Notes under the pieces: model-generated
The model's input: the letters and a program-made list of their open reading frames with translations, nothing else
What the model was told of the DNA's origin: nothing
The model's database searches: none
Shown: piece after piece, positions 11,432-60,872 of the stretch
Numbering within the stretch: position 1 is the stretch's first letter
Layout of the letters: the number at the start of each line of letters is the position of its first letter
NCBI GenBank assembly: GCA_028716225.1
Contig: JAQUQE010000003.1
Location: 619 to 64,618 of the forward strand
Length of the DNA: 64,000 nt
Reading direction: 5' to 3'
Source of the DNA: Dehalococcoidales bacterium
GTDB taxonomy: Bacteria > Chloroflexota > Dehalococcoidia > Dehalococcoidales > UBA5760
Made by a program: the position numbers and the translations under genes

Positions 11432-12178
11432 TTGTTAAGCAGGATGCGTTGCGCGATTATTGCCGATATTCATGCCAATCTGGCCGCTTTCTCTGCCGTA
11501 CTGGCTGATATCAAGCAGCGGGGAGGGGTAGATGAAGTATGGTGTCTGGGAGATATTGTCGGCTATGGTCCTGACCCCTGCCAGTGTATCGAGATATTGC
11601 GTCGGCTGGAAAACGTCTGTATTGCGGGTAACCACGATTGGGCGGCAATCGGTAAGCTCAGTCTCTCCGAATTTAACCCTGACGCTGCTTACGCTTGCCG
11701 CTGGACAGCGGAGCAGTTAAGCGCTGAGGATGTGGTCTACCTTGATGGCTTACCCGAGGTTGCCGAGAAGGGTGATTTTACTCTGGTACACGGTAGCCCG
11801 AGGCAACCGATTTGGGAATACCTTCTCTCCATCGGCAGCGCCAGAGAGAATTTCGCTTACTTCAGCTCGCAGTTCTGTCTGGTGGGTCATTCTCACGTAC
11901 CTTCTATATTCAGATGTACCGAGACCGGTGATTGCTCCTTCAACCCGTTTTCGGCTAACGTCGGGCTTGCTCTGGGTAAGAGTCGTTTGATTATTAACCC
12001 TGGTAGTGTCGGCCAACCCAGAGATGGTGACACCAGGGTTAGTTATGCTATTCTTGATGATGAAATCATGATGCTTCGGCTCTACCGGGTCCCTTATGAT
12101 ATCAGTCTCACTCAGGCCAGGATGGTGAAACATAATCTACCGATGCGTCTCGTCTCTCGCCTGAGCCGTGGTATCTGA
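11432..12178 (+). CDS. Metallophosphoesterase (YfcE/MJ0936-like). The start is uncertain: TTG 11432 or ATG 11444.
   Basis: Motifs IADIHAN, GDIVGYG, GNHD, GHSH. Confidence 0.8.
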   Translation: MLSRMRCAIIADIHANLAAFSAVLADIKQRGGVDEVWCLGDIVGYGPDPCQCIEILRRLENVCIAGNHDWAAIGKLSLSEFNPDAAYACRWTAEQLSAEDVVYLDGLPEVAEKGDFTLVHGSPRQPIWEYLLSIGSARENFAYFSSQFCLVGHSHVPSIFRCTETGDCSFNPFSANVGLALGKSRLIINPGSVGQPRDGDTRVSYAILDDEIMMLRLYRVPYDISLTQARMVKHNLPMRLVSRLSRGI

Positions 12179-12257
12179 CTACTTTAGATAAAGGCGGTCG
12201 TTACTTTTCCTCGCAGTAGTTTTCCAGGAGGTTTTTTCGCTGAAGGCGGGATCACTT

Positions 12258-13121
12258 TTGGCTCAGACCAGGGGGCAGTTGCGTCGCTTTGACCTGCGGG
12301 CGAGAAAGGGTTTGGGACAGCACTTTCTTATCGATGAAGAGGTACTTAAACTGACCACCTCGTCCGCAGAGCTGACTGCCACTGATGTGGTGATAGAGGT
12401 CGGCCCCGGGCTTGGCGTGTTGAGCAGGGAGTTAGCCAGCCGGGCGGGTCGGCTGTTTACCATTGAACTGGACAGCAAACTGGCCGTTATTTTAAAAAAT
12501 GACCTGGCCCATTTTCTTAACGTTACCGTGATTAATGATGACGTCCTTAATATTGACCCGGCATCCCTGCTGCAGGGGGGGCAGGTCGGCTTTTCTCCGG
12601 TAACAGACAGCCCCTTACACTATAAGGTGGTGGCTAACCTTCCCTACTATATTACCTCTGCCGTGCTCCGCCATTTTCTGGAAGCCTCCTTGAGGCCCCG
12701 GTTAATGATATTAATGATGCAGAAAGAGGTGGCTCAGGCGATTGTGGCCGGACCGGGGGGGATGAGTCTGCTCAGTATCAGCGTGCAGTTTTATGCCCGA
12801 CCGGAGATAATAGAATATGTGCCGGCGCACTGTTTTTACCCCCAGCCGAAGGTTGACTCGGCACTGCTCAAGGTGCTCTCCTATCCCGAACCGCCGGCAG
12901 TAGACCGGGTTAGCTTTTTTAGGTTGGTGCGCGCTGGTTTTACTGCTTCCCGCAAGCAGATATGTAATTCACTAGCCCGCGGCCTCGGCTTACCCAAAGA
13001 TGAAGTTATTTCCTGGTTAGTGAAGGTCGGGATAGCGCCGCAGCGCCGGGCTGAGACGCTTGCTCTTGACGAGTGGGTGGAGCTGTGGCGGGTGTTTACT
13101 CAAGTGGAGAGAGGAGAGTAA
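12258..13121 (+). CDS. rsmA: 16S rRNA (adenine1518/1519-N6)-dimethyltransferase
   Basis: 287 aa with GQHFLID, the SAM motif VIEVGPGLG, and NLPYYITS. Confidence 0.9.
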   Translation: MAQTRGQLRRFDLRARKGLGQHFLIDEEVLKLTTSSAELTATDVVIEVGPGLGVLSRELASRAGRLFTIELDSKLAVILKNDLAHFLNVTVINDDVLNIDPASLLQGGQVGFSPVTDSPLHYKVVANLPYYITSAVLRHFLEASLRPRLMILMMQKEVAQAIVAGPGGMSLLSISVQFYARPEIIEYVPAHCFYPQPKVDSALLKVLSYPEPPAVDRVSFFRLVRAGFTASRKQICNSLARGLGLPKDEVISWLVKVGIAPQRRAETLALDEWVELWRVFTQVERGE

Positions 13122-13122
13122 A

Positions 13123-14001
13123 ATGCTTGAGTTCATGGCGCCGGCGAAACTGAACCTGACCCTTGAGGTCCTTGCCCGGAGGGAGAACGGTTTTCATGAA
13201 ATCCGTAGTGTTGCCCAGACGATAAATCTATGCGATACCATCCGTTTCCGGCCGGGCGAAGGTGTCGAGTTTAGCTGTTCTGACACCGATTGGGCTGCTT
13301 CGGAGAGCCTGATGGCTAGAACCGTCAATTTGCTGAGAGAAGCTACCGGCTGTTCTAGAGGTGTGTTAATCGAGGTGGAAAAGCGTATCCCCTTGCTTTC
13401 CGGATTGAGCGGTGACAGCAGTGATGCGGCGGCTGCTCTACGCGGGCTTAATCGGCTCTGGGAACTGGGTTTATCTCAAGAAGAACTGCTCGGTCTGGCC
13501 GCGCGTTTGGGCTCTGATGTTACCTTCTTTCTCTACGGTGGTACCGCTTTACTTGAGGGTAGAGGCGAAGCGGTGACTCCGCTGCCTCCGTTTCCGCATA
13601 ACTGGGTTGTATTGGTGCTGCCGCCGGTACCCAGAATGCCGGGTAAAACGGCACGGCTCTATAGCGGCATCAGGGCGAGCCACTATAGTGACGGAAGCAT
13701 TACGGATAGGCTGACAGCCTGCCTTAACCGGGGTGGCGGAATGCCCTACTCCTTGCTGTTTAACGTGTTCGATGAGGTTGCTCTGGTTAGTTTCCCCGGC
13801 CTTGAATCATACCGGCAGCAGTTCCTGGAGGCCGGAGCTCCTGAGGTCCACCTGGCCGGCTCGGGGCCGGTCCTCTTTAGCTTGGTGCGGGACAGGGCCG
13901 GGGCGGAGGAGATATGCCAACACCTTAGCGAGTTGGGGCTCAATCACTATCTCACGGATACCATGACCGCCTTTGAAGGTACCGGAGCAGAATTACTGTA
14001 A
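13123..14001 (+). CDS. ispE: 4-diphosphocytidyl-2-C-methyl-D-erythritol kinase
   Basis: It starts MLEFMAPAKLNLTLEV and belongs to the GHMP kinase family (GLSGDSSDAAA). I chose ATG 13123, which has a GAGGAG SD and follows the rsmA stop, rather than the track start at 13060. Confidence 0.9.
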   Translation: MLEFMAPAKLNLTLEVLARRENGFHEIRSVAQTINLCDTIRFRPGEGVEFSCSDTDWAASESLMARTVNLLREATGCSRGVLIEVEKRIPLLSGLSGDSSDAAAALRGLNRLWELGLSQEELLGLAARLGSDVTFFLYGGTALLEGRGEAVTPLPPFPHNWVVLVLPPVPRMPGKTARLYSGIRASHYSDGSITDRLTACLNRGGGMPYSLLFNVFDEVALVSFPGLESYRQQFLEAGAPEVHLAGSGPVLFSLVRDRAGAEEICQHLSELGLNHYLTDTMTAFEGTGAELL

Positions 14002-33512: not shown

Positions 33513-33631
33513 CGTGCTTATTTCTTTTTGGCATTACTGATCCCGGACCTTGGACAAACATAAAGAGCCCAGATTCCATACCTGAGCCCTCTTTACTTTC
33601 GGTTAAATCGACTAATATCAATTCTGAAGCA

Positions 33632-36594
<2,963 letters not shown>

Positions 36595-36765
36595 TGCTTC
36601 AGATTTGATATTAGTCCTTATTCAGTTATTAAGGTACAACAGACACAAAAACGGCCTGGTGACTTACCACCAAGCCGCTCGCCTGGTTTTCAATCACCCT
36701 GCTTCCCTTTTTATGTCTTAAACATCCTCATAGGCTATTACAGCAGCACCTTATGCTGATAGGAA

Positions 36766-47629: not shown

Positions 47630-48982
47630 GTGAACACATCAGCAAGGGCTATAAAAGACCGGCCAGTAATCGGATGTAAAGAAAGATCAGATAGGGCAGA
47701 AAATAGCGGGGGTGTCGTCGAAGACGAACCTCCCGGTAAAGCCGATACCTTCGGCAATTGCGCAGAGGAACCACCAAGTAAGACCGCCACCAACAGAGAC
47801 AGGTTTTTCGGTAATGTACCGGACAGTAACTGGAACGACTGGAGGTGGCATTTTCGTAACCGCATCACTACTGTTGATAAACTGGCTGGCTTTATCCCGC
47901 TGTCCGGTAGTGAGAAGGCTCAGATCAAGCTGGTCACCATGAAGTACCCCCTTTCCGTGACCCCCTATTATCTCTCGCTGATCAACCCGGACGATCCGGA
48001 AGACCCGATTAGGAAACAGGCGATACCATCTATCCTGGAGATCACTATGGGGATGGTGGGTCTGGAAGACCCTCTTGATGAGATGAGGGATTCGGTAGTG
48101 CCAGGTCTGGTTCACCGCTACCCCGACCGGGTCTTGATGGTGCTTACCGATATCTGTCCTATGCTCTGCCGGCACTGTACCCGTAAGCGAGAGTGGCGGA
48201 ACGGCGGTTGGGTACGTAATCCCGCCGAGGTTGAAGCCATGCTTGACTATATTCGCCACCATGAAGCCATCAGGGATGTCATCATATCGGGCGGTGACCC
48301 CTTGACGCTTTCCACGCCTCATCTGGAGGGGGTCATCTCTAAAATCAGAGCTATTAAACATGTGGAGATCATCCGTATCGGGACTAGATTTCCGGTAGTG
48401 CTCCCGCAGCGTATTGACGATGAGCTGTGTGCGATGCTGTCCCGGTACGGTCCGATATGGCTCAACACGCATTTTAATCACCATCAAGAAATCACCCCGG
48501 AAGCGGCGGCGGCCTGCGACCGGTTACTCCGTAGCGGTATTCCGGTCAACAACCAGTCGGTGCTCTTGCGCGGAGTGAATGACAGCGTGGCGGCTCAGAT
48601 GAAGCTGTGCCACGGACTACTCAGAATTAAGGTGCGCCCCTACTATCTGTTCCAGTGTGACGAGGTGCAGGGTACCGAGCACCTGCGCACCCCGGTTGAT
48701 GCTGGTATCAGCATTATTGAAGGGCTACGCGGACATACCTCAGGGCTGGCGGTACCTACCTTTGTGATAGACTTACCTCAGGGGGGTGGCAAGGTGCCCG
48801 TACAGCCAAACTATGTCCTGACAAAGAAGAAGGGAGAGCTGCTGCTGAGAAACTACGAGAGACGCTTCTTCCGTTACCGCAATCTGAAAGTACCGGCAGA
48901 TCTGGAGCCGGAGCCGGCACCGGAGGTAATAAGTCCTTTAAGCGGTTCTGATTCCGGCTTACTGGTAGAAACGGGGGCCTAA
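47630..48982 (+). CDS. kamA: Lysine 2,3-aminomutase (KamA/AblA family radical SAM, PLP-dependent)
   Basis: 450 aa. It aligns by eye with Clostridium subterminale LAM: WNDWRWHFRNRI, the cluster motif CPMLCRHCTRKR, SGGDPL, QCDEVQG, and VIDLPQGGGK (PLP Lys). Confidence 0.9.
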   Translation: MNTSARAIKDRPVIGCKERSDRAENSGGVVEDEPPGKADTFGNCAEEPPSKTATNRDRFFGNVPDSNWNDWRWHFRNRITTVDKLAGFIPLSGSEKAQIKLVTMKYPLSVTPYYLSLINPDDPEDPIRKQAIPSILEITMGMVGLEDPLDEMRDSVVPGLVHRYPDRVLMVLTDICPMLCRHCTRKREWRNGGWVRNPAEVEAMLDYIRHHEAIRDVIISGGDPLTLSTPHLEGVISKIRAIKHVEIIRIGTRFPVVLPQRIDDELCAMLSRYGPIWLNTHFNHHQEITPEAAAACDRLLRSGIPVNNQSVLLRGVNDSVAAQMKLCHGLLRIKVRPYYLFQCDEVQGTEHLRTPVDAGISIIEGLRGHTSGLAVPTFVIDLPQGGGKVPVQPNYVLTKKKGELLLRNYERRFFRYRNLKVPADLEPEPAPEVISPLSGSDSGLLVETGA

Positions 48983-48993
48983 TCCGGGGGTTA

Positions 48994-50004
48994 GTGATGC
49001 GTATTGGTCTGGCCTATGATCTTAAAGAGGTTATCAATCCGGAGGCGGATGGTCCTGAGGATGCCCTGGAAGAGTATGATTCCGGTGAGACGATTGATCT
49101 GATTAGCACGGCGTTTAAATCAGCCGGTCATTCGGTAGTCAATATGGGCGGGGGATCTGATTTTCTTCTTAATATTCTCAGGGAAAGAGTTGACCTGGTC
49201 TTCAACATAGCTGAGGGTAGGGGTAACTACCGAAGCCGGGAGGCCCAGGTGCCCTCCGTTCTGGAGATGCTGGACATCCCTTACTCCGGTTCTGATCCTC
49301 AGTGTCTGGCGATTTGCCTCGATAAGCCCCTTACCAAGCAGTTGATTAAAGCCGCGGGTGTCCCTACTCCGGCCTGGCATGTTATTGATACTCCGGAGCA
49401 TCTATCAGCGGTGTCCTGGAACGGACTAGCCTACCCGGCGATTATCAAGCCCGCTTACGAGGGTTCAAGCAAGGGCATTCATGTTGGCTCTCTGGTAAGC
49501 AACCCGGAGGAAGCAGTTGAGGTGGTAGGGCGTCTTCTTAAATGCTATCGGCAGCCGATGATGCTGGAGGAGTTTATTCCCGGTGATGAGGTCACTGTAG
49601 GTGTAGTCGGTAATACACCGCCCGCAGTACTGGGTATGATGAGGATAGTGCCCAAGAAAAAGGTTGACCATTTTGTCTACTCGCTTGAGGTGAAGCGTGA
49701 CTACCTCAATCTGGTTGACTACGAGTGCCCGGCCCGTCTTGAAGAAGATGTCTTAGCGGAGATAGCGGCATCCAGCCTTAAGGCCTTTTCCGTGCTGGGG
49801 TGCCGGGACTTTGCCCGGTTGGACTTTAGAGTTGGCCCGGATAGAATACCCTATTTTATTGAGGTAAACCCTCTGCCCGGGCTTGGTACATACAGCGACC
49901 TGATTATCATGGCACTCAAGCTGGGCTGGCGTTATGAGGAACTCATCGACACTATACTCAGGGCGGTGGTAAAGAGATATCCGCAATGCGTGCTGGCTCG
50001 GTGA
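48994..50004 (+). CDS. ATP-grasp ligase, D-alanine--D-alanine ligase family (paralog 1)
   Basis: 336 aa with LEMLDIPYSGS, LDKPLTKQL, EEFIPGDEVTVGVVG and ARLDFRV...YFIEVNPLPG. Confidence 0.85.
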   Translation: MMRIGLAYDLKEVINPEADGPEDALEEYDSGETIDLISTAFKSAGHSVVNMGGGSDFLLNILRERVDLVFNIAEGRGNYRSREAQVPSVLEMLDIPYSGSDPQCLAICLDKPLTKQLIKAAGVPTPAWHVIDTPEHLSAVSWNGLAYPAIIKPAYEGSSKGIHVGSLVSNPEEAVEVVGRLLKCYRQPMMLEEFIPGDEVTVGVVGNTPPAVLGMMRIVPKKKVDHFVYSLEVKRDYLNLVDYECPARLEEDVLAEIAASSLKAFSVLGCRDFARLDFRVGPDRIPYFIEVNPLPGLGTYSDLIIMALKLGWRYEELIDTILRAVVKRYPQCVLAR

Positions 50005-50010
50005 GAGGGT

Positions 50011-51015
50011 ATGGTATCAAGGAGACGTATTGCAGTTGTCTATAACGAGCCCTCCCCCTCGCGTTACGATACCACCGGGGAAGAAAAGGCTGCTCTGGGT
50101 GTTCTGGAGTCGGTGGAGGCGGTCAGCCGTGCTCTTCTTGACCTTGGCTATGACACCCTCAATATTCCGCTGGCCTCTCCTATCGAGGCAGCCCGGGAAA
50201 AGCTCGGGTCTTTGAAGGTAGATCTGGTCTTCAATCTCTTCGAAGGCTTTTGTGGGCAGCCGGAGACCGAAGCGATGGTACCCGATTTTTTAGCCGGGCT
50301 TGGTATAGCTTACACCGGCTGCCCGGCTAGCGCGCTAAAAGTAGCCCTGGATAAGGCTAAGTCCAAGCAGATTATGAAAGCGGCTGGAATCAAGACGCCC
50401 GATTCCCAGCTGCTTACTTCCGAGGCTCTCTCCCGGTTTAACCTGGGTTATCCCTGTATCGTCAAGCCCCGTGGTGAGGATGCGAGCCACGGTTTATCTC
50501 AAGCCAGCGTGGTGAATGACCTTAAGTCACTGGCAGGTCAGGTTAGCAAAGTGTGCCAGTTCTATGGCGGTGAAGCGCTGGTAGAAGAGTTTGTTGATGG
50601 GCGGGAGTTCAATGCTACCGTTCTCGGCAACGGCGGTGGTGTCGTACTACCCGTATCGGAAATCGTCTATTCACTGCCTTCGGACATGCCTCGAATTCTT
50701 ACCTTCGCTGCTAAATGGGAACCGGAAAGCCGGTACTTCAAGGGAACGAAGAATATCTGTCCCGCCCAAATTTCCTCTACCACTCAGCAGTATATTACCG
50801 GAACGGCACGCAGGGCTTTCTTGCTGCTGTGCTCCTGGGGCTATGCCAGGGTGGACATGCGTTTAGATAGAGAAGGTGAGCTCAACGTAATCGAGGTGAA
50901 TCCAAACCCCGATATCTCCCCCGGTTCTGGAGCCGTGCTTCAGGCTGAAGCCGCCGGGATGAACTACACCCAGTTCATAGATAAGATTACCCGGCTTGCT
51001 TTTAAGAAGGGTTAG
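50011..51015 (+). CDS. ATP-grasp ligase, D-alanine--D-alanine ligase family (paralog 2)
   Basis: 334 aa with LGIAYTGC, LDKAKSKQI, EEFVDGREFNATVLG and ARVDMRLD...NVIEVNPNP. Confidence 0.85.
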   Translation: MVSRRRIAVVYNEPSPSRYDTTGEEKAALGVLESVEAVSRALLDLGYDTLNIPLASPIEAAREKLGSLKVDLVFNLFEGFCGQPETEAMVPDFLAGLGIAYTGCPASALKVALDKAKSKQIMKAAGIKTPDSQLLTSEALSRFNLGYPCIVKPRGEDASHGLSQASVVNDLKSLAGQVSKVCQFYGGEALVEEFVDGREFNATVLGNGGGVVLPVSEIVYSLPSDMPRILTFAAKWEPESRYFKGTKNICPAQISSTTQQYITGTARRAFLLLCSWGYARVDMRLDREGELNVIEVNPNPDISPGSGAVLQAEAAGMNYTQFIDKITRLAFKKG

Positions 51016-51017
51016 TC

Positions 51018-51497
51018 ATGACAGTCAGTATGAGACCTATGACCCGGGATGATAAGCCGGAAGTAATCAGGCTGCTTAAGGCTACGCCGGAGTTTGAGCC
51101 GTCTGAGGTGGTGGTAGCGGAAGAAGTTATCGATTGCTACCTTGACCGACTGTCCGGATCAGGGTACCACGTTCAGGTAGCGGTAGCAGAGTCGGAGGTG
51201 GCCGGCTATGTCTGCTACGGGCCCACCCCAATGACTGAAGGCACCTGGGACCTTTACTGGGTGGCGGTCTCCGCTGAGAGGCAGGGTGGAGGTATCGGTA
51301 GTGCCTTAGTTAAACTGGCTGAAAACGAGGTAAGAAGCGCCGGGGGGAGGCAGATTCTTATTGAGACATCATCCAAGCCGGGGTATGAAAAAACGAGGCG
51401 TTTTTACTTCAGCCGGGGTTATCAGATAGTCGGCTGTATCCCTGATTTCTATACGTCCGGGGATGATAAGCTTGTACTCCGAAAACTATTGGTGTGA
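51018..51497 (+). CDS. GNAT-family N-acetyltransferase
   Basis: 159 aa with the acetyl-CoA motif RQGGGIGSALV and ARRFY-like RRFYFSRGY. Confidence 0.85.
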   Translation: MTVSMRPMTRDDKPEVIRLLKATPEFEPSEVVVAEEVIDCYLDRLSGSGYHVQVAVAESEVAGYVCYGPTPMTEGTWDLYWVAVSAERQGGGIGSALVKLAENEVRSAGGRQILIETSSKPGYEKTRRFYFSRGYQIVGCIPDFYTSGDDKLVLRKLLV

Positions 51498-51574
51498 TAC
51501 CCCGGGGCGCAATCCGAAGATCAGGATTATTGATATAATAGTGTTGCGGCGTCGAAAAAAAGCGGGATAAGAGC

Positions 51575-53353
51575 GTGTTTAGAATTCGTAGAGTTTACGA
51601 CAATGTAACTCCGCTGAACGAAGAAGCAATTGGCCAGGTTCAGGAAATCCTCCGCACCCAGTTTCCTGGTCTGTCCCGGAGGGACATTGCCAAATTACCC
51701 CAACAACTGCGCAACCCTTTGAAGTATCGCTTTCGTGCCATTCTCTTTGTGGCCGAGGACTCGAAGGATAGGGTGATGGGTTTTGCCATTCTCTTTCACG
51801 AGCCGGTGCTTAACTTTGGCTTCCTCGATTTCATATCCGCGGCCGAACGAGAGACTGGTAAGGGTATTGGCAGTGCCCTCTACGAGAGGGTTTGTGAAGA
51901 AGCCCTCTTCCTGAAAACGGTCGGGCTTTTCCTGGAGTGCCTGCCGGATGATCCCAAGCTGTCACGTAACCCTGAAATCAGAAAGCAGAATGTCGCTCGG
52001 CTGCGCTTCTATGAAAGATACGGTGCCAGGCCGATTGCCAACACCGCTTACGAAACCCCTCTAGAACCTGGAGGCGATAATCCCCCTTACCTGGTTTATG
52101 ATGACCTGGGCCAGGGTAGACCTCTGGGGCGAGATGAAGCACGTGCTATTGTCCGGGTGATTCTGGAACGAAAGTATAAGGGTGTCTGCCCTCAGAACTA
52201 CATTGAGATGGTGGTCGAGTCGTTTCAGGATGACCCGGTAAAACTGAGAAAACCGAGGTACGTAAGGAAGAAGCCGCCGGTACCGGTCAGGATTTCCCCG
52301 CCGCTTGACAAACGCATCAGGCTGGTTATCAACGACCGACACGCCATTCATCATGTCGAGGAGCGTGGCTACGTTGAATCTCCGGTAAGGATAAGCTCGA
52401 TTCTGGAGGAGCTTGAGACCACCCGGCTTTTTCACAAGGTCAGCCCCCGGCACTTCGCCGAAAAACGAATCAAGGCAGTCCACCGCAGCCAGTTTGTTGA
52501 CTACCTGAAGAAAGTGTGCACTAACCTCGACCCGGACAAGTCCATTTATCCCTACGTCTTTCCGATTCGTAATGTCGCCCGCCCTCCCAAGGAGCTTTCC
52601 ATCCGGGCAGGCTATTATTGCATCGATACCTTTACGCCGATAAATCGGAATGCCTATCTGGCAGCCAGAAGGGCGGTAGACTGTGCTCTGACTGCAGCGA
52701 AAGAGATTCTGGACGGGTACCGTCTGGCTTATGCCCTGGTCAGGCCGCCCGGTCACCATGCCGAAAGGCGTGCTTTCGGCGGCTTCTGTTACTTTAACTC
52801 GGCGGCCGTAGCTGCCGAGTATTTGAGTGTTCATGGTAAGGTTGCCATACTGGATATTGACTATCACCACGGCAATGGACAGCAGAATATATTCTACGAG
52901 CGTGCCGATGTCTTGACCGTATCTATTCACGGCCACCCCAATTTTGCCTATCCCTACTTCAGTGGTTTTGAAGGCGAGGAAGGTGCCGGCCCCGGCAAGG
53001 GGTATAATGTCAATATTCCTCTCCCTGAGAATGTCAGTAATGAACGCTATCTCAATGTGCTGGGTCGAGCACTGGGGCGAGTAGCCAGATTCAGACCCAA
53101 ATTTCTCATCGTTACCCTTGGACTGGATACGGCTAAAGAAGACCCGACGGGTAGCTGGAGCTTACAGGGCGAGGATTTCCAGACTATAGGAAAGATGATT
53201 GGCTCGCTCCATTATCCGACCATTGTCGTCCAGGAAGGAGGCTACGATACCAGGGTGCTCGGTATCAATGCCCGCCACTTTTTCGAAGGGCTCTGGACCG
53301 GTTCTTTCACCTTACCCCCGCGCTCCGGCAGGAAAAAGCCGGCGATGGAATAG
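51575..53353 (+). CDS. Fusion protein: an N-terminal GNAT-like domain plus a C-terminal histone-deacetylase-family (AcuC/APAH-like) zinc amidohydrolase
   Basis: 592 aa. Residues 1 to about 200 carry RETGKGIGSALYERV (the GNAT Q/RxxGxG motif). Residues from about 250 carry RPPGHHA, DIDYHHGNG and EGGY (HDAC catalytic His pair, Asp/His zinc ligands, catalytic Tyr). Confidence 0.85.
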   Translation: MFRIRRVYDNVTPLNEEAIGQVQEILRTQFPGLSRRDIAKLPQQLRNPLKYRFRAILFVAEDSKDRVMGFAILFHEPVLNFGFLDFISAAERETGKGIGSALYERVCEEALFLKTVGLFLECLPDDPKLSRNPEIRKQNVARLRFYERYGARPIANTAYETPLEPGGDNPPYLVYDDLGQGRPLGRDEARAIVRVILERKYKGVCPQNYIEMVVESFQDDPVKLRKPRYVRKKPPVPVRISPPLDKRIRLVINDRHAIHHVEERGYVESPVRISSILEELETTRLFHKVSPRHFAEKRIKAVHRSQFVDYLKKVCTNLDPDKSIYPYVFPIRNVARPPKELSIRAGYYCIDTFTPINRNAYLAARRAVDCALTAAKEILDGYRLAYALVRPPGHHAERRAFGGFCYFNSAAVAAEYLSVHGKVAILDIDYHHGNGQQNIFYERADVLTVSIHGHPNFAYPYFSGFEGEEGAGPGKGYNVNIPLPENVSNERYLNVLGRALGRVARFRPKFLIVTLGLDTAKEDPTGSWSLQGEDFQTIGKMIGSLHYPTIVVQEGGYDTRVLGINARHFFEGLWTGSFTLPPRSGRKKPAME

Positions 53354-53368
53354 TATCGGGGTGACTTG

Positions 53369-53527
53369 ATGGGCCAGGGTGGTATTGTCGGCTTCTACAG
53401 CTGCCCGGATTGTTGCTGTTACCATCGTTATCCTGAACCACACAAAAATGACATTTGTGCATCCACTCGGGCAAACTCCAGTCTTGAGCACAACGCTCAG
53501 CATTCAGTTGGAGGCACAGTGATTTGA
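53369..53527 (+). CDS. Possible small Cys-rich peptide (52 aa). Not in the ORF track.
   Basis: Hand translation gives MGQGGIVGFYSCPDCCCYHRYPEPHKNDICASTRANSSLEHNAQHSVGGTVI. A GGGGTGA SD lies 4 nt before the ATG. It starts 16 nt after the stop of the GNAT-HDAC gene. Confidence 0.2.
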   Translation: MGQGGIVGFYSCPDCCCYHRYPEPHKNDICASTRANSSLEHNAQHSVGGTVI

Positions 53528-53644
53528 TAGGCTTATGACAGGATGTTAGACTACTACGGTAATGATGATTGGGTGCTTTTACCTGAATTTGGTGTCTATT
53601 TCCCCATCTACGCCACTTAAAGAGGATGATAATGTAGTATTGGT

Positions 53645-55024
53645 ATGAACAAAAGAGAATTTGTAGCTAGTATAGTAATTATTGTTGCAGGCATAATGGC
53701 CTTGTTAATTGCAGGAGTACTGTTCCAAGAGAGGGGGACCACACCCGCCACGGAGCAGTATCTTCGACCGGAAGGATGGACAGAAGAAACTCACGGTGAC
53801 GATGTAGATCCGAACTATAAAATTGTCTTCCCCCAGGATCAAGTTAACCGGATGAAGATCACTATTTCCCCGGATGATTGGGAAGCAATGCAGGCAAATA
53901 TGACCGATCTACTGGGTGCCCCCGGAACCAACCAGCAGGTTGACACGAAACCGGAGAGCCCTATCTGGGTACCGGCTAAGATTGAATTCAACGGTCTGAT
54001 TTGGAACAACGTTGGTATCCGCTACAGGGGCAGTTCGACACTTATAAAGTGGGGCAGTGGCACACTGAAGATACCTTTGAGGTTTAACTTCGATAAGTTT
54101 GAGGATAAATACCCTGAAATCAAAAACCAGCGGTTCCATGGTTTCAAGAAGCTGGCGATGGCGAATGCTATCTTTGACCCGACGTATATGCGTGACGTTA
54201 TCATGTCCGACGTTCTGGCAGAAGCGGGTTTAGTAGCCGCTGAGACCGCCTATTACGAAATCGTCATGGACTATGGTGAAGGTCCGGTTAACCTTGGTCT
54301 TTATGTGGCGATAGAGGTCATTGAGCATACAGTCATTGAGCGTTACTTTGGTGATAAATCAGGCAATATCTACAAGGGACAAAGCGTGGGGGTTAGCCTG
54401 GCAGAAGGTACATTCGATTTGATTCGACACGGCTTCGTGAAGAAAAACAACGAAACTGAAGCTGATTGGGGTGATATTGAAAAATTGTATGCCATCCTCC
54501 ATTCGAAAGAGCGTATATCTGATCCTGAGGCCTGGCAGGAAAGTCTGGAGTCGGTATTTAACGTAGACGTCTTTCTCAAGTGGCTGGCTATCAGTGCTGT
54601 CATCGAGCACTGGGATACGTACGGGGACAGGCCAGATAATTTCTACCTCTATAATGATCCTGACAGCGAGTTGCTTACCTGGATATCCTGGGACCATGAT
54701 ATGATACTGGGCATAGTGGGTGAGGGGAAAAGCAGCGCATCCCTGGGTAGAGAGGAGATAGGGCGGGACTGGCCGTTGATTCGCTACCTGCTGGATGACC
54801 CAATCTACTACAACCGCTACGTAGATTATATCCGGGAAACGATTGAGGGGCCTTTTGACCCGGCTAAGCTGGAGGTAAAGTGCAGGACATTGGCAGAATT
54901 GATTGCTCCCTATATTGCGGAAGAATCCGGTGAGGCTGCTTTTGAATCGGGCGTTGAGAGGTTAATCAACCGTATTTACGAGCGTTATCAGGTGGCCGGG
55001 GATTTTCTGGATACTTGGAGGTAG
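53645..55024 (+). CDS. CotH-family atypical kinase with an N-terminal membrane anchor
   Basis: 459 aa. It has one N-terminal TM helix (ASIVIIVAGIMALLIAGVLF) and CotH-like blocks (KIPLRFNFDKF, NIYKGQ, NFYLYNDP...WISWDHDM). Confidence 0.85.
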   Translation: MNKREFVASIVIIVAGIMALLIAGVLFQERGTTPATEQYLRPEGWTEETHGDDVDPNYKIVFPQDQVNRMKITISPDDWEAMQANMTDLLGAPGTNQQVDTKPESPIWVPAKIEFNGLIWNNVGIRYRGSSTLIKWGSGTLKIPLRFNFDKFEDKYPEIKNQRFHGFKKLAMANAIFDPTYMRDVIMSDVLAEAGLVAAETAYYEIVMDYGEGPVNLGLYVAIEVIEHTVIERYFGDKSGNIYKGQSVGVSLAEGTFDLIRHGFVKKNNETEADWGDIEKLYAILHSKERISDPEAWQESLESVFNVDVFLKWLAISAVIEHWDTYGDRPDNFYLYNDPDSELLTWISWDHDMILGIVGEGKSSASLGREEIGRDWPLIRYLLDDPIYYNRYVDYIRETIEGPFDPAKLEVKCRTLAELIAPYIAEESGEAAFESGVERLINRIYERYQVAGDFLDTWR

Positions 55025-55806
55025 ACAAGTTGGCAGTGCAATTACACGATGTGTCGCTTGGTACTATAGATATATTGCCGGAGAGGTTTGAACGTAAGTA
55101 TTATTTGGTACCTGAAGAAGCCGGTATCGCTTATGGGCTTCTTCGGCACATGTGTCTACCGGCTAGAGAATATTTTTCCGAACAGATAAATAGTCTTTAC
55201 TTCGATACTGCCGGCCTGGAACAGCATGAAAGGTCCGCTGCGGGTGACTATAACAAAGATAAGGTACGCATCCGCTGGTACGGTGAGGATAGGGATATGA
55301 ATGGAATGCGGTCCGTGTTCATTGAACTGAAATCGAGGCGGGGTTTCACCAGTACCAAGCAACGACTGAAGTTATCCGTACCGGCCGTGAGTTTGACGCC
55401 AGGTAATCTTGTCAGAGGCATTGTCCCTATAACCCTGCTGATGGATACCCTGGCAAGATTTGGCTATTTCCCGCACGAGATGCTCCACCCGGTAATCAAG
55501 ATATCCTACTGGCGTCATCGCTTTAGCGAGATTATGACCGGGCAACGGGTTTCGCTTGATTGTCATATTCGTTCTACGATGGTAATGCCAGGACAAGGTA
55601 ATGGTGAAAAGGAGCTGGAGTTACCCGGCGGTATTATAGAGATTAAAGGATTGGCTATGGATCTTCCTGTCAGTTTGATACGAATGAGGACGTTATATGT
55701 AGATTGGACTAGATTCTCCAAATATTCCTCGTGTATCGATTCGCACCTCGAAGAGCCCGGCTCTATGGGGCGCCTGTCACCCTCAGGGAGAATAACCCAA
55801 CTATAG
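55015..55806 (+). CDS. VTC-domain protein (Vtc4-like polyphosphate polymerase / triphosphate-tunnel domain)
   Basis: 263 aa with ERFERKYYL, SLYFDT, KVRIRWYG and FIELKSRRGFTSTKQR. No TM segments. The start overlaps the CotH stop. Confidence 0.85.
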   Translation: MEVDKLAVQLHDVSLGTIDILPERFERKYYLVPEEAGIAYGLLRHMCLPAREYFSEQINSLYFDTAGLEQHERSAAGDYNKDKVRIRWYGEDRDMNGMRSVFIELKSRRGFTSTKQRLKLSVPAVSLTPGNLVRGIVPITLLMDTLARFGYFPHEMLHPVIKISYWRHRFSEIMTGQRVSLDCHIRSTMVMPGQGNGEKELELPGGIIEIKGLAMDLPVSLIRMRTLYVDWTRFSKYSSCIDSHLEEPGSMGRLSPSGRITQL

Positions 55807-55842
55807 TCAGCTATGATAACATGATAATACTAGGAGGAATAA

Positions 55843-56502
55843 ATGCCAGAGGGATTTGATCTATTTGCATCCTTACCAGAAATGAGAGAGGCCATTATAC
55901 CCCTCGGATTCTCGATGTTAGGGGCTGTCATTACCTATTTGATATATAACCTGTTTTACGGCTCTAGCCATATCGGGGCCGGTGTACATCGCACCTTTCT
56001 TGTCGGTGGCCCTGTTATCACAATGATATTCCTGGTTATCCAGACCTCTATACCACTCGGTCTAGGGTTACTCGGAGCACTTGCCATAGTGCGTTTCCGA
56101 ACGCCGGTAAAAGACCCAGCCGAGATAGGATTTCTACTTCTGTTGATTGCTTCCTCGCTAGGGGCCGCAACCGGTAACTACCTGATAACTGCTTTAATGT
56201 TTATTATTGTCTTCGGTGCTCTAGGGGTACACAGGTTAATAAGCAACCGGGTTACTCTATTGGGAAGAGGACATCTGATGATCGCTGTTGACCGAGGCTC
56301 TTTTCCATCAATAGAGAAGAAGCTGATGGCCTTCCTCTCGGAGAAGCTTACAGGCTTGCATCTGGAGACTATATCCACTATTGATGATCGGATTAGCCTA
56401 AATTACCAATACAAACGTCGGGCAGATTTCGACTGGCCGGCTTTTATAAATGAGTTAAACCAGATTGCAGGGACGTCGGGGATTGAGGTTTTCGTGAGCT
56501 AA
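55843..56502 (+). CDS. DUF4956 membrane protein
   Basis: 219 aa with several TM helices, the signature AIVRFRTPVKDPAEIGFLLL and a C-terminal soluble domain. GGAGG SD. Confidence 0.85.
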   Translation: MPEGFDLFASLPEMREAIIPLGFSMLGAVITYLIYNLFYGSSHIGAGVHRTFLVGGPVITMIFLVIQTSIPLGLGLLGALAIVRFRTPVKDPAEIGFLLLLIASSLGAATGNYLITALMFIIVFGALGVHRLISNRVTLLGRGHLMIAVDRGSFPSIEKKLMAFLSEKLTGLHLETISTIDDRISLNYQYKRRADFDWPAFINELNQIAGTSGIEVFVS

Positions 56503-56542
56503 TACCGGCTGAAATCGAAAGCGTGGGCGGTTATGAGGTCAT

Positions 56543-57211
56543 TTAGTACTTAGATACCCCTATTTCCTCCATTTTCCCTGTGACGGTAAATACTATACGT
56601 TCGCAGATGTTGGTTACTCTATCGGCGCTGCGCTCCAGGTTGTGAGCTACCCAGATAAGCCGGGTGGCTCTGGTAATGGTCTTGGGGTCCTCGGCCATAA
56701 AGGTGAGTAGCTCTCGGAAAACCTGGGAATACAGATTATCCACGTCGTCATCTTCAGCAGCGACCCGGCGTGCCGTTTCGGTGTCATTGTTGATAAAGGC
56801 ATCCAGGCTCTGTTTCAGCATACTGATAGTCTTTTCAGCCATACGGGGGATGTCGACCAGCGGCTTAAGCGGCGGCTCGTCTCCTATCATCAACACTATC
56901 TTGCTGATACCTTCGGCATGATCACCGATCCGTTCCAGCTCGGCGATGATATTGAGTACGCCGATAATAATACGCAGGTCGCTGGCCATCGGCTGCTGGG
57001 TAGCGATCAGTCCGATACAGTCGCCTTCTATACCGAATCGCTTACTGTTTATCTTCTGGTCATCTTTAATAATCTGGTGAGCGAGGGACAAGTCTCTGTT
57101 CTTGAGCGCTTCGATGGACCGCTCGAGTGCTTTTTCTGCCATGCTTCCCATCGCCATAACGTCGTCCTGAATCGCCCTCAGCCTTCTGTGAAAAACCGTT
57201 CTCGTTTCCAT
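56543..57211 (-). CDS. phoU: Phosphate signalling complex protein PhoU
   Basis: 222 aa with two PhoU repeats (ERIGDHAEGI, ERSADRVTNI). Confidence 0.93.
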   Translation of the reverse strand: METRTVFHRRLRAIQDDVMAMGSMAEKALERSIEALKNRDLSLAHQIIKDDQKINSKRFGIEGDCIGLIATQQPMASDLRIIIGVLNIIAELERIGDHAEGISKIVLMIGDEPPLKPLVDIPRMAEKTISMLKQSLDAFINNDTETARRVAAEDDDVDNLYSQVFRELLTFMAEDPKTITRATRLIWVAHNLERSADRVTNICERIVFTVTGKMEEIGVSKY

Positions 57212-57230
57212 TATTAACCCCTCCTGGTAT

Positions 57231-58049
57231 TTAACCGAACCTGCCGGTAATATAGTCTTCCGTACGTTTATCTCTGGGATTTGTGAATAGAGTTGATGTG
57301 GCGCCGTATTCCACCAGTACCCCGGCTCTATCCTCTGCCATCATGAGAAAAGCGGCCATATCCGATACCCGTGCTGCCTGTTGCATATTATGGGTGACGA
57401 TAACCACAGTATAGTCTTCAATCAAAACCCTCATCAGGTCCTCAATTTTTAGTGTCGCTACCGGATCGAGGGCGCTGCAGGGTTCGTCCATCAGGATTAC
57501 CTCGGGCTCCACCGCCAGGACCCGGGCAACGCACAGCCTTTGTTGCTGCCCCCCAGATAGCGCCAGGGCAGAATTGGCTAATTTGTCTTTCACCTCGTCC
57601 CACAGGGCTGCCTGACGCAGACTTCTCTCGACAATTTCTTCAAGCTTACCCCGGTTCTTCATGCCGTGTCGTCGTGGGCCATAGGCCACGTTTTCGAATA
57701 CAGACATGGGGAAAGGATTCGGTTTTTGGAATACCATGCCTACCCTTTTCCTGAGATCGACGACGTCGATAGACTCCTGATATATTGATATGCCTTCAAG
57801 CTCCACGCACCCTTCTACCCTGACATTGGAAATAAGGTCATTCATCCGGTTAAAAACACGCAGGAAAGAAGATTTCCCGCAACCGGAAGGTCCGATGATA
57901 GCCGTAATCGCCTTTTCCGGTATTTCCAGAGTAACGTCCCTTAATGCCTGGAAGGAACCGTAGTAAAGGTTTAGCTGTTCCGTTCTTAGTTTTACCCGGT
58001 TATTCCGGCTCATCTTGCTATCATTTGATACCGCTAAGTTTACACTCAT
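57231..58049 (-). CDS. pstB: Phosphate ABC transporter ATP-binding protein
   Basis: [17 protein letters not shown] and ILMDEP. I chose ATG 58049, which overlaps the pstA stop (TAATG). The longer track ORF, reaching 58373, overlaps pstA. Confidence 0.93.
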
Positions 58050-58909
58050 TAGCTGTGACTCCTTCGCCCGGACCTTGATCTTATAACGGCAGAAGCAATA
58101 TTGAAGGCTAGAACTACTCCCAGCAGTACCAGGGCAACACCCCACATCGTGCCCTTGGGCATACCGGGAACGTGAGCTGCCACAGTGTAAAGGTGGTAAG
58201 GGAGGGCCATAAAGCGGTCGAAGAGCGACTGCGGCAGACCGGGAACCAGAAAAGCAGCCCCCACTACTAATATCGGGGCCGTCTCTCCTGCCGCTCGAGA
58301 AATGGCCAGGATGACCCCGGTGAGAATTCCCGACCAGGCCTGAGGCAACACCACGTGCCTGATCGTCTGCCACCTGGTAGCCCCGATAGCCAGACTCCCC
58401 TCCCGGTATTCCCGCGGTACTGCCAGCATGGCTTCTCTGGAAGTTGTCACCACCATTGCCAGTGCCTGACAGGCCAGGGTTAGACTGGCCGAAATTAGCG
58501 ACATGCCGAATTGGAATGTCATCACAAACAGGCCTAAGCCGAAAAGCCCGTAAACGATACTGGGAACACCGGCCAGGTTGAGGATGGCCAGGTTAATAAT
58601 GCGGGTTATCCGGTTGTCTTTAGCATACTCGGAGAGGTAAATACCGGCCGATACGCCTATCGGCAGGGAGAATAAAACCGTACCCAGCATAAGTAAGAAA
58701 GTGCCTATCAGGGCCGGGAATATGCCTCCGGCCTTGCCTGCCTCTGTCGGAGGCTGAGTAAGAAACGCCCAGTCGATTACTCCGGCGCCATTAGCGATTA
58801 TGTAGATGATGATAAACGATACGATGGCTATGACGACGATGGTAGCCAGGCCCAATAGCCCGAAGGCAGCGCGCTGTGAAAATTGACGTGATGATCGTGG
58901 ACTATTCAT
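58049..58909 (-). CDS. pstA: Phosphate ABC transporter permease PstA
   Basis: Six-TM permease with the EAA-loop region ([15 protein letters not shown]). I chose ATG 58909, just after the pstC stop. Confidence 0.9.
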
Positions 58910-58916
58910 CTGATCG

Positions 58917-59855
58917 CTACCTCGCAAACCTTCGTTTTTGACGTTCCAGAACCCTGCTGGCGATAAGGTTAACCCCCAGTGTAATGAAGAATAAGACCAG
59001 GCCGATGGCAAATAGTGCCTGGTACTGTAGGCCACCACGTACGGCATTGCCGATTCCGGAGGCAATGGCTGCCGTCATCGGCATCATCGGTTCGGTTGGT
59101 GATTGGGGTACTGCCAGAGCACCGCCGGCTACCATTAGGACCGTCATTGTCTCACCGATAGCACGACCTACACCCAGCATCACGGCTGCGGTAATACCGG
59201 ATAAGGCGGCCGGTATAGATACGTGTCTGATTGTTTCCCACCGAGTTGCGCCGAGAGCATAGGATGCCTGCTTGAAATCATCGGGGACAGCTCGCAGAGC
59301 ATCTTCAGAAACGCTGATAATAATGGGCAGACTCATCATCGACAACATGATCGCTGCGGAAAATCCGGTCAGCCCGGTATTGAGGTTAAAGGTGCTCTGA
59401 ACCAGCGGCGACAATATCATGAGACCGATAAAACCCATCACTACCGATGGTATCCCCGCCAGCAGTTCAACGAGGGGTTTTACCATGTTTCTTACCCTCG
59501 GTGAAGCGACCTCAGCAAGGTAAGCAGCACAGGCGATTCCGATAGGTATCGCAATCGCTGTTGATACCATAGTGACGATCATCGTGGATACCAGGAATGG
59601 CAATATGCCGAAGGTGGGCGGCTCGGATACCGGGTACCACTTGGCTCCTGAGAAAAACTGCCACGGATTCGTGTGAAGAAAAATCGGCGCACCTTCTCGT
59701 ATCAGAAAGAAGACGATCCCCAGTAGAATTACTATGGCCAGTATTCCGGCAAGGAGAATCCACCCCTCGATGAACCTCTCGCCCGAACGCCGACGCCGCA
59801 GCCCCCCGACTTTACCGGCTGCGGCGATGACAGCTGATATGCTTCGCATTAGCAT
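58917..59855 (-). CDS. pstC: Phosphate ABC transporter permease PstC
   Basis: 312 aa permease with the EAA loop (KQASYALGATRWETI). Confidence 0.9.
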   Translation of the reverse strand: MLMRSISAVIAAAGKVGGLRRRRSGERFIEGWILLAGILAIVILLGIVFFLIREGAPIFLHTNPWQFFSGAKWYPVSEPPTFGILPFLVSTMIVTMVSTAIAIPIGIACAAYLAEVASPRVRNMVKPLVELLAGIPSVVMGFIGLMILSPLVQSTFNLNTGLTGFSAAIMLSMMSLPIIISVSEDALRAVPDDFKQASYALGATRWETIRHVSIPAALSGITAAVMLGVGRAIGETMTVLMVAGGALAVPQSPTEPMMPMTAAIASGIGNAVRGGLQYQALFAIGLVLFFITLGVNLIASRVLERQKRRFAR

Positions 59856-59869
59856 ATTTCCCCTCTACT

Positions 59870-60787
59870 TTATGGCAGCGGGACGTAGCCCACTTCATTT
59901 ACCTTTAGCTGACCTTCTGCCGAAAGGCAGTAGTCGATGAAAGCCTTGATGATACCCTCCGGCTCGCCATCAGTATAGTAGAGTAGCGGCCTGGCAATAG
60001 GATATGTTCCATTCAGAGCTGTTTCCACACTGGGGAGAATACCGTTGTCATTGGTAGTAATCTTAATACCCAAGGGCTTCACTTCATCCGTGAGATAGCC
60101 TAATCCGGGGTAAAAGATGGCATTAGGGTTGCCGGCCGTTTCCGACACTCCCCCTTCAGTCGATGGCAGCATCAGTACATCAGGTCCATACTCCAGGCTC
60201 TTGTCTTCGGTAGGCAGTCCCTGCATCTGTACCACGTGCTCCTTGAAGAAGACATGGGTACCGGAGTTGGTATCCCGTGAAATAGCCACGATTTCGGCAT
60301 CGTTACCACCGAGTTCACTCCAGTTAGTTATCCGGCCGGCATAGATAGCTGAAATCTGGGCGATGGTCAACTCGGATACCGGGTTGGACGGATGCACTAC
60401 TACCGACAGGGCATCGGTAGCTACATGAATCTCGTAGGGGTATACCCCCTTTGACTCAGCCTGTTCAATCTCTAGCGATTTGATCTTGCGTGATGCCTGA
60501 CATACTTCGGTAGTACCGTCTATCAGGGCTGCTATACCCGCTCCGGAACCGGGACCGCTGACAGAGATTCTCACACCGGGATTTATCGTCATGAAGTCCT
60601 CGGCCCATACCGAGGTAATGGGTGTTACCGTATTTGACCCGACTATACTGAAGGTGCCGGATAGCTCTGTACCCGGTGATGGAGTGACTGGCGCTGGCCC
60701 GGGGTTGCCGGCACAACCGGACAGGCTAAGACCGCCTACCAGCAAGGTTGATAAGATTAACCACTTATGCCATTTCTTGATTCTCAA
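59870..60787 (-). CDS. pstS: Phosphate-binding lipoprotein PstS
   Basis: 305 aa with a signal peptide and lipobox LSLSGC, GSNTVTP and SRDTNSGT. AAGGAGGA SD. Confidence 0.9.
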   Translation of the reverse strand: MRIKKWHKWLILSTLLVGGLSLSGCAGNPGPAPVTPSPGTELSGTFSIVGSNTVTPITSVWAEDFMTINPGVRISVSGPGSGAGIAALIDGTTEVCQASRKIKSLEIEQAESKGVYPYEIHVATDALSVVVHPSNPVSELTIAQISAIYAGRITNWSELGGNDAEIVAISRDTNSGTHVFFKEHVVQMQGLPTEDKSLEYGPDVLMLPSTEGGVSETAGNPNAIFYPGLGYLTDEVKPLGIKITTNDNGILPSVETALNGTYPIARPLLYYTDGEPEGIIKAFIDYCLSAEGQLKVNEVGYVPLP

Positions 60788-60833: not shown

Positions 60834-60872
60834 GTTTAAGACGAGTTTAAGCGCCTGTTAAATTTCTGTTAA
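60834..60872 (-). promoter_or_regulatory. Pho-box array: four direct hexamer repeats with exact 11-bp phasing, upstream of pstS
   Basis: The minus strand reads TTAACA gaaat TTAACA ggcgc TTAAAC tcgtc TTAAAC, followed 9 nt later by the -10-like TATGAT (60824-60819). Confidence 0.6.

Follow-up and report, generated by a model that had tools for sequence, protein, structure and literature searches.

A set of three co-oriented genes at 53645-56502 encodes a CotH-family kinase, a VTC-domain protein and a DUF4956 membrane protein in a 64-kb stretch of DNA from a Dehalococcoidales bacterium (contig JAQUQE010000003.1; the whole stretch of 64,000 nucleotides is hereafter called the window). The VTC-domain protein is apparently a genuine and catalytically intact tunnel enzyme of the yeast Vtc4 type, as judged from its alignments and its structural model. 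Across related genomes, VTC and DUF4956 form the invariant core of the gene set, and an exported protein, most often CotH, usually accompanies them. We give an even chance to the proposal that the trio would act as a trans-membrane envelope module, in which the cell would make a phosphate polymer on the inside to serve a kinase exported to the outside. This proposal is drawn from the intact Vtc4-type site, the obligatory membrane partner, the predicted position of the kinase outside the membrane, and the co-inheritance of the genes across phyla.

The three genes and their products

The three open reading frames (ORFs) all lie on the + strand: cotH at 53645-55024, the VTC gene at 55015-55806 and the DUF4956 gene at 55843-56502 in the ORF list. 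Every product exceeded the gathering score of its Pfam family (CotH, 2.1e-49; VTC, 8.2e-19; DUF4956, 3.8e-11), which confirmed the gene set as it had been described in the original prediction from the letters alone. The best homologues were 91-97% identical and named as Dehalococcoidales, and none of the three proteins matched the PADLOC models of anti-phage defence (E up to 0.01). The mechanical VTC ORF starts with a TTG at 55015 and is 263 aa long, from which an overlap of cotH with the VTC gene had been read. However, VTC homologues are 258 aa long with the N-terminus MAVQL, and a second TTG at 55030 has a GGAGG 8 nt ahead of it; for these two reasons the true start is probably at 55030 (gene at 55030-55806, + strand, 258 aa), which would leave a gap of 5 nt after the cotH stop, and the overlap is probably not real. 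Transmembrane (TM) segments were predicted by a hydropathy scan of the three proteins, which gave one, zero and four helices for CotH, VTC and DUF4956 respectively, in agreement with the single N-terminal helix, the soluble protein and the polytopic protein first described. In the predicted topology, the VTC enzyme is inside the cell, the four-helix DUF4956 protein is in the membrane and the CotH domain is outside.

The VTC protein scored 68.5 bits (cut-off, 23) against the 235-position PF09359 model, of which it spans positions 3-232. A profile of 50 homologues (26-49% identity) matched yeast Vtc4 (3g3q) at 2e-14 over nearly the full length; the C-terminal half of the protein alone had no match in the PDB, and this diverse profile settled the alignment instead. 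The AlphaFold2 (AF2) model of the protein had a predicted local distance difference test score (pLDDT) of 81 and a predicted template modelling score (pTM) of 0.83. Its best PDB matches by Foldseek were Vtc4, Vtc3 and Vtc2 (at 4e-11 to 1e-8), and hydrolytic YgiF, an archaeal triphosphate tunnel metalloenzyme (TTM) and CYTH cyclases were found at 3e-7 or weaker. Thus the proposed homology to the catalytic tunnel of Vtc4 was upheld by Pfam, by the profile and by the best structural match.

Cryo-electron microscopy of the yeast VTC complex has shown the triphosphate to be held by K200, R264, R266, K281, R361, K458, S457 and Y359, and Mn2+ by E426. Every one of the eight triphosphate-binding residues of yeast Vtc4 is required for polyphosphate (polyP), and K458 is the one position at which the inactive Vtc2 and Vtc3 have another residue (Ile or Leu). 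All nine triphosphate- and Mn-binding residues of Vtc4 aligned with identical residues in the window protein; in the full alignment, K23, R80, R82, K101, K110, Y160, R162, R173, E204, K206, S230 and K231 correspond to K200, R264, R266, K281, K294, Y359, R361, R373, E426, K428, S457 and K458 of Vtc4 respectively. The catalytic positions were invariant in the 50 homologues, except for S230, Y160 and R162, which were nearly invariant. Loss of the basic tunnel residues was looked for as a sign against catalysis and was not found, as all of them are present.

The window enzyme therefore shares with the yeast VTC complex (3G3Q, 7YTJ, 8I6V) the PF09359 domain, the tunnel fold and the triphosphate- and Mn-binding residues including the K458 equivalent, and in both systems a cytoplasmic enzyme is coupled genetically or physically to a membrane component. 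On the other hand, the window enzyme is a stand-alone protein of 258 aa without an SPX domain or a fused three-helix membrane domain; the window system has no homologue of Vtc1, Vtc2, Vtc3 or Vtc5; the DUF4956 partner is unrelated in fold and sequence; and the window enzyme has E21 where Vtc4 has T198. The bacterial VTC family comprised 1354 cluster representatives at 50% identity (E 1e-3 or better). No natural fusion of VTC with DUF4956 or with TM domains was present among the seven longer representatives inspected, the extra length of which contained no recognisable domain or membrane segment, and a tblastn search of VTC against plasmids returned no match.

The cotH product (459 aa; 53645-55024, + strand), a CotH-family atypical kinase by Pfam, is predicted to be anchored at its N-terminus and extracytoplasmic. 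Its sole hydrophobic helix (residues 9-27 in the hydropathy scan) is preceded by a basic N-terminus (K3/R4), and an N-terminal hydrophobic segment was found in 51 of the 53 CotH orthologues with complete N-termini. The protein aligned with Bacillus cereus CotH (5jd9) at 1.1e-11 and kept the HWD and WDHD motifs, which correspond to the catalytic D228 and the metal-binding D251 of B. subtilis CotH; mutation of these residues inactivates the B. subtilis protein. The catalytic D324, N332 and D350, which match B. subtilis D228 and D251, were invariant among 57 trio-associated orthologues. CotH is thus predicted, from its motifs and N-terminus, to be a competent and exported kinase with an intact active site. 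The Pfam CotH domain and the catalytic and metal-binding Asp residues are common to this protein and the Bacillus spore-coat CotH (PDB 5JD9), but the window protein differs in its N-terminal membrane anchor, which would place the domain outside the cell. A Pfam scan found no carbohydrate-binding extension on the window CotH. Moreover, no spore-coat genes were present in the window and no CotB- or CotG-like Ser-rich substrates were found nearby; sporulation is not known in the Dehalococcoidales lineage.

The DUF4956 protein (219 aa; 55843-56502, + strand) matched its Pfam family (PF16316) at 43.4 bits against a cut-off of 30.6. Its four TM helices were placed at residues 17-35, 48-66, 93-111 and 115-133 by the hydropathy scan. 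The invariant signature of the family is R84-F-R-T-P-x-K-D-P-x-E94, together with R50 and Q67; with the C-terminus in the cytoplasm after four TM helices, the basic RFRTPxKDPxE motif would be on the cytoplasmic side as well. In the AF2 model, residues 141-219 fold as beta-alpha-beta-beta-alpha-beta, and this C-terminal, ACT-like fold matched ACT domains and MgtC C-domains (7qa5, 2lqj) at ~1e-3 by Foldseek.

Two identities were tried for DUF4956 and rejected. As an MgtC homologue, it reached a probability of only 0.2-0.5% when aligned by hhalign with Escherichia coli YhiD using two profiles, and no Pfam MgtC match was obtained even at E up to 10. The likeness to the MgtC/SapB family lies in the C-terminal domain, which matches the two MgtC C-domains; the RFRTPxKDPxE motif, by contrast, is specific to DUF4956, and no sequence-profile relation was found (YhiD tested). 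As a CapC/PgsC-like polymer exporter, it gave only Pfam E-values of at least 0.27, and hhalign against B. anthracis CapC was negative. DUF4956 appears, from gene order and the structural model, to be an obligate partner of VTC with no recognisable channel.

Conservation of the trio across genomes

A scan of species-representative genomes yielded 80 loci, nearly all of them from Dehalococcoidia, and three metagenome loci brought the set to 83; gene content was read by hidden Markov model (HMM) search of their ORFs. In all 79 loci having downstream DNA, DUF4956 followed VTC directly on the same strand. Partners were counted in the 46 loci whose flanks reached at least 2 kb upstream and 3 kb downstream: CotH lay within 6 kb of the pair in 32 of these, a Cthe_2159 (PF14262) protein was present in 12, and one or the other stood beside the pair in 39. 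The beta-helix family Cthe_2159 binds cellulose and polygalacturonate, and 21 of the 23 Cthe_2159 neighbours had an N-terminal hydrophobic segment. The gene for this secreted protein often came after DUF4956 (at 11554-13362 in locus L001, at 11753-13435 in L003 and in ~20 of loci L005-L083). In some loci it takes the place of CotH, like an alternative exported partner, and it is absent from the window. In one actinobacterial locus (L076, 6225-18283) the module is duplicated, with two CotH genes, two VTC-DUF4956 pairs and Cthe_2159 genes between them.

Six distant homologues (28-34% identity) came from Planctomycetota, Anaerolineae, a proteobacterial Steroidobacter and unassigned contigs. Five of the six loci had the complete trio, in the order VTC-DUF4956-CotH or CotH-VTC-DUF4956; at the sixth (L092), the contig ends within the gene upstream of VTC, to which no family was assigned. 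The stop and start codons of the distant trios were 1-5 nt apart or overlapping, and the distant CotH proteins carry CHB_HEX_C_1, Fn3_assoc or LTD domains. Several of these loci sit among glycosyltransferase, deacetylase and epimerase genes or beside MoxR-DUF58-BatA genes. Such an arrangement of the trio is far beyond chance, and its co-conservation across phyla, which had been put forward as a point to check, is borne out by the 79/79 pairing, the 32/46 loci with CotH and the five complete distant trios.

Two further associations were observed around the pair. A Bat-like operon (MoxR AAA ATPase, DUF58 and BatA/VWA) adjoins VTC-DUF4956 in unrelated lineages (L089, 10355-13309; L092, 3731-6703; and the flanks of L036, L039 and L044), sometimes together with a trypsin-like protease. 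Right before the trio in L091 (235-3067) and L093 (5117-7939) lie genes for an AMP-binding (adenylating) enzyme and a pyridoxal phosphate (PLP)-dependent ornithine/diaminopimelate/arginine (Orn/DAP/Arg) decarboxylase-family protein.

The novelty of the gene combination had been overstated, as the trio had been published earlier among the accessory genes of Gram-positive pel operons. Whitfield et al. (2020) reported that streptococci, clostridia and bifidobacteria carry cotH, polyphosphate polymerase, DUF4956 and DUF4832 genes as accessories contiguous with pelDEADAFG, and a similar gene set is present at the NELoc-2 locus of Clostridium perfringens. In a study of Streptococcus intermedius (preprint; mBio 2025), SIR_1593 was modelled as a Vtc4-like protein with the catalytic residues and SIR_1592 as a protein with four TM helices and an ACT domain. 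The S. intermedius trio (SIR_1594-1592) and the window trio are alike in that the three families are contiguous and co-oriented and the predicted topology is equal; they differ in that the window has no DUF4832 or glycoside hydrolase gene, its CotH has no FN3 domain, and the host is a member of the Dehalococcoidales. The 59 loci with CotH in the present set run counter to the statement (mBio 2025) that the synteny of the trio was absent outside Pel loci. The window trio is thus a new lineage and a new context for a published gene trio. The earlier statement that no function had been demonstrated experimentally for this combination agreed with the literature searched, in which none was recorded.

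Proposed mechanism and alternatives

In the proposed module, the VTC tunnel enzyme would polymerise phosphate from a nucleoside triphosphate on the cytoplasmic face of the membrane. DUF4956 would anchor this enzyme and pass its product, or the effect of that product, across the membrane. Outside, the anchored CotH protein (or Cthe_2159 in sister loci) would use the product, bind it or modify it on surface proteins or glycans. A narrower version, in which exported polyP would be the phosphoryl donor for CotH or would be attached by CotH on surface proteins or glycans, seems distinctly unlikely. If it were true, extrusion of polyP by VTC and DUF4956 would answer the lack of ATP outside the cell, and the trio would represent a third, PPK-independent bacterial route to polyP and the first polyP-driven extracytoplasmic kinase system. 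Of the bacterial VTC-like machine suggested in the original prediction, the catalytic residues, the co-conservation and the topology stood, and the link to phosphate uptake did not.

Several lines of evidence weigh against the trans-membrane module: i) the VTC protein consists of the tunnel domain and lacks the SPX domain and the TM helices of Vtc4; ii) Glu (E21) is invariant in the bacterial VTC family where Vtc4 has T198, and it reads as a relic of the ExExK metal site that hydrolytic TTM enzymes have, on account of which hydrolysis or other chemistry would be possible for the VTC protein; iii) the literature searched contains no report of activity for a VTC-domain protein from bacteria; iv) the sole recognisable domain of DUF4956 is ACT- or MgtC-C-like, that is, of a regulatory type, and cytoplasmic; v) the AF2 model of DUF4956 is weak (pLDDT 68; pTM 0.41), with a pLDDT of 50-74 in its membrane part, and no Vtc1 or Vtc4 membrane chains were among its Foldseek matches, the model of the membrane part being of low confidence; vi) the pair occurred without CotH or Cthe_2159 in 7 of the 46 adequately flanked loci (~15%); and vii) deletion of the trio genes of S. 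intermedius had only modest effects on Pel and aggregation, neither of which was abolished in the preprint, where a small drop was seen in the DUF4956 mutant alone.

The main rival of the module is a signalling device, in which the VTC protein would act on a triphosphate-containing ligand by hydrolysis or cyclisation, DUF4956 would be an MgtC-like regulatory membrane protein sensing a metabolite with its ACT domain, and CotH would be the regulated output kinase. The invariant E21 at the ExExK position, the ACT- and MgtC-like C-terminal domain of DUF4956 (E ~1e-3) and the lack of any channel-like similarity of DUF4956 by Foldseek all point in this direction. However, the VTC protein has the full Vtc4 polymerase residue set, including the K458 equivalent, and its structural match to Vtc4 is four orders of magnitude better than that to the hydrolases. 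Moreover, no profile relation (YhiD tested) or Pfam match connects DUF4956 with the MgtC family, and a cytoplasmic signal would hardly be able to reach a kinase domain outside the membrane. We regard the signalling device as unlikely.

A role as an accessory of an exopolysaccharide or biofilm matrix, with CotH phosphorylating or regulating matrix components and polyP as an anionic matrix partner, overlaps the trans-membrane module. The trio is contiguous with pelDEADAFG in the streptococci, clostridia and bifidobacteria named above, and in the published version (mBio 2025) the DUF4956 and CotH mutants of S. intermedius are reported to aggregate less and to have altered levels of Pel. In addition, the trios of Planctomycetota, Anaerolineae and L093 (an unassigned metagenome contig) lie among GT2, GT4, deacetylase and epimerase genes and have CotH proteins with CHB_HEX_C_1 or Fn3_assoc domains, and the polysaccharide-binding beta-helix protein Cthe_2159 is a frequent neighbour. 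On the other hand, no pel, glycosyltransferase or polysaccharide gene was found in the window by a Pfam search of essentially all ORFs of at least 110 aa, no polysaccharide gene was found within 10 kb of the trio in the closest relatives, and the window CotH is without a carbohydrate-binding extension. As an explanation of the window trio, such a matrix role is rather unlikely.

The neighbours of the trio suggest a third explanation, namely that it would be a Pho-regulon device for phosphate storage, tied to pstSCAB-phoU and making polyP upon phosphate uptake. The convergent genes phoU-pstB-pstA-pstC-pstS lie outside the module at 56543-60787 on the - strand, and PhoU, PstB, PstA, PstC and PstS all exceeded the cut-offs of their NCBIfam equivalogs. 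The stop codons of the DUF4956 gene (56502) and phoU (56543) are 40 nt apart, so that the position of the trio beside a complete uptake locus was correctly described at the outset. A PhoR/PhoB-like two-component pair is found beyond the pst genes (NCBIfam). About 45 nt upstream of pstS, a Pho-box-like array (TTAACA-N5-TTAACA-N5-TTAAAC-N5-TTAAAC; 60834-60872, - strand) consists of four hexamers at 11-bp spacing and has the best four-repeat score in the window (20/24); it is presumably a site for the adjacent PhoB-like regulator. Proximity to phoU, the presence of the two-component pair and of the Pho box inside the same 10 kb, and the phosphate polymer expected as the product of a Vtc4-like enzyme are all consistent with such a storage device.

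However, the trio and phoU-pst would be separate transcription units because they are convergent, and PstS, PstC, PstA and PhoU were found within 10 kb in 0/83 related and 0/6 distant loci. The adjacency to phoU was retained only in a contig 97% identical to the window. An 86%-identical relative (L084) has DUF364 and Fur genes downstream of the trio in place of phoU; its nucleotide homology with the window is confined to 53442-56538 and ends ~36 nt past the DUF4956 stop. Pho regulation of the trio was also tried and rejected: a four-repeat search modelled on the pstS array reached at best 14/24 upstream of cotH, a background value, against 20/24 at pstS. The linkage to pst/pho genes on which the earlier suggestion had leaned thus did not survive; the position of the trio next to phoU-pstBACS appears to be incidental, a lineage-specific accident with no regulatory or functional link, and the storage device is very improbable.

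The weakest alternative, which we find scarcely credible, is that polyP would be purely cytoplasmic, with DUF4956 a mere anchor or granule organiser and CotH just co-transcribed and unrelated in function: the S. intermedius authors suggested that polyP may stay cytoplasmic since the other VTC subunits are missing, and ~15% of loci have the pair alone, but an exported partner is found in 85% of the adequately flanked loci, in varying gene order, and its recurrence from two unrelated families favours a functional link across the membrane.

Upstream region, remaining window and implications

Comparison with L084 delimited a conserved promoter or leader region of ~200 nt ahead of the trio (53445-53644, + strand). 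This leader was 84% identical to L084 by BLAST (66-88% per 100-nt bin, versus 75-86% for cotH coding DNA), and the DNA upstream of it was unrelated in each genome. Since the homology covers just the leader and the three genes, the trio appears to be autonomous and to have a promoter or operator of its own. A candidate promoter, TTGATA-17-TGTTAGACT (-35 TTGATA; extended -10 TGTTAGACT), is predicted at 53524-53552 on the + strand, and an inverted repeat, TGAGC-N5-GCTCA, was observed in the leader. A structured RNA was considered for this region and rejected, with no Rfam match (E at least 1) and folding not above that of shuffled sequences (z = +0.9); we read the leader as a likely promoter or operator.

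In many Dehalococcoidia loci, though not in the window, a response-regulator gene precedes the trio and may encode the regulator of the module. In L084 (6012-6689) the upstream response regulator is of the receiver-plus-GerE type, and weak PhoB-like matches were observed ~2 kb upstream of cotH in L014, L016, L018, L019, L021, L024, L026 and L035.

The five-gene cluster directly upstream of the trio (47630-53353, + strand) is not kept beside it in relatives. Besides a KamA-like lysine 2,3-aminomutase and two D-Ala-D-Ala-ligase-type ATP-grasp enzymes, it encodes a GNAT acetyltransferase and a fusion of GNAT with a histone-deacetylase-family domain, and it looks like a pathway to an acetylated beta-lysine compound or peptide. 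The other content of the window is housekeeping (shikimate operon, 23S rRNA, hisS, recJ, glnA and gatB). A complete 23S rRNA gene (33629-36595, - strand) stands alone, and no 16S or 5S rRNA gene was detected in the 64 kb; therefore the rRNA genes are unlinked. The mechanical pstB ORF (57231-58373, - strand; 380 aa) overlaps pstA, and its PstB match is limited to the last ~269 aa; therefore the real start is probably an ATG near 58040.

Bacterial polyphosphate is credited to PPK1 and PPK2, and VTC is regarded as a eukaryotic machine; a recent evolutionary review analyses the distribution of VTC only across eukaryotes. The proteins described here belong to a large, overlooked family of what appear to be stand-alone Vtc4-type enzymes, with the full set of catalytic residues and always paired with one membrane protein. 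The recurrence of the trio outside pel loci, the pair as its core and the pst adjacency as a probable red herring narrow the experiments that are worthwhile. The link to an exported CotH bears on the source of phosphoryl donors for secreted bacterial kinases, and the VTC-DUF4956 pair is a candidate for PPK-independent polyP synthesis that may be coupled to the cell envelope.

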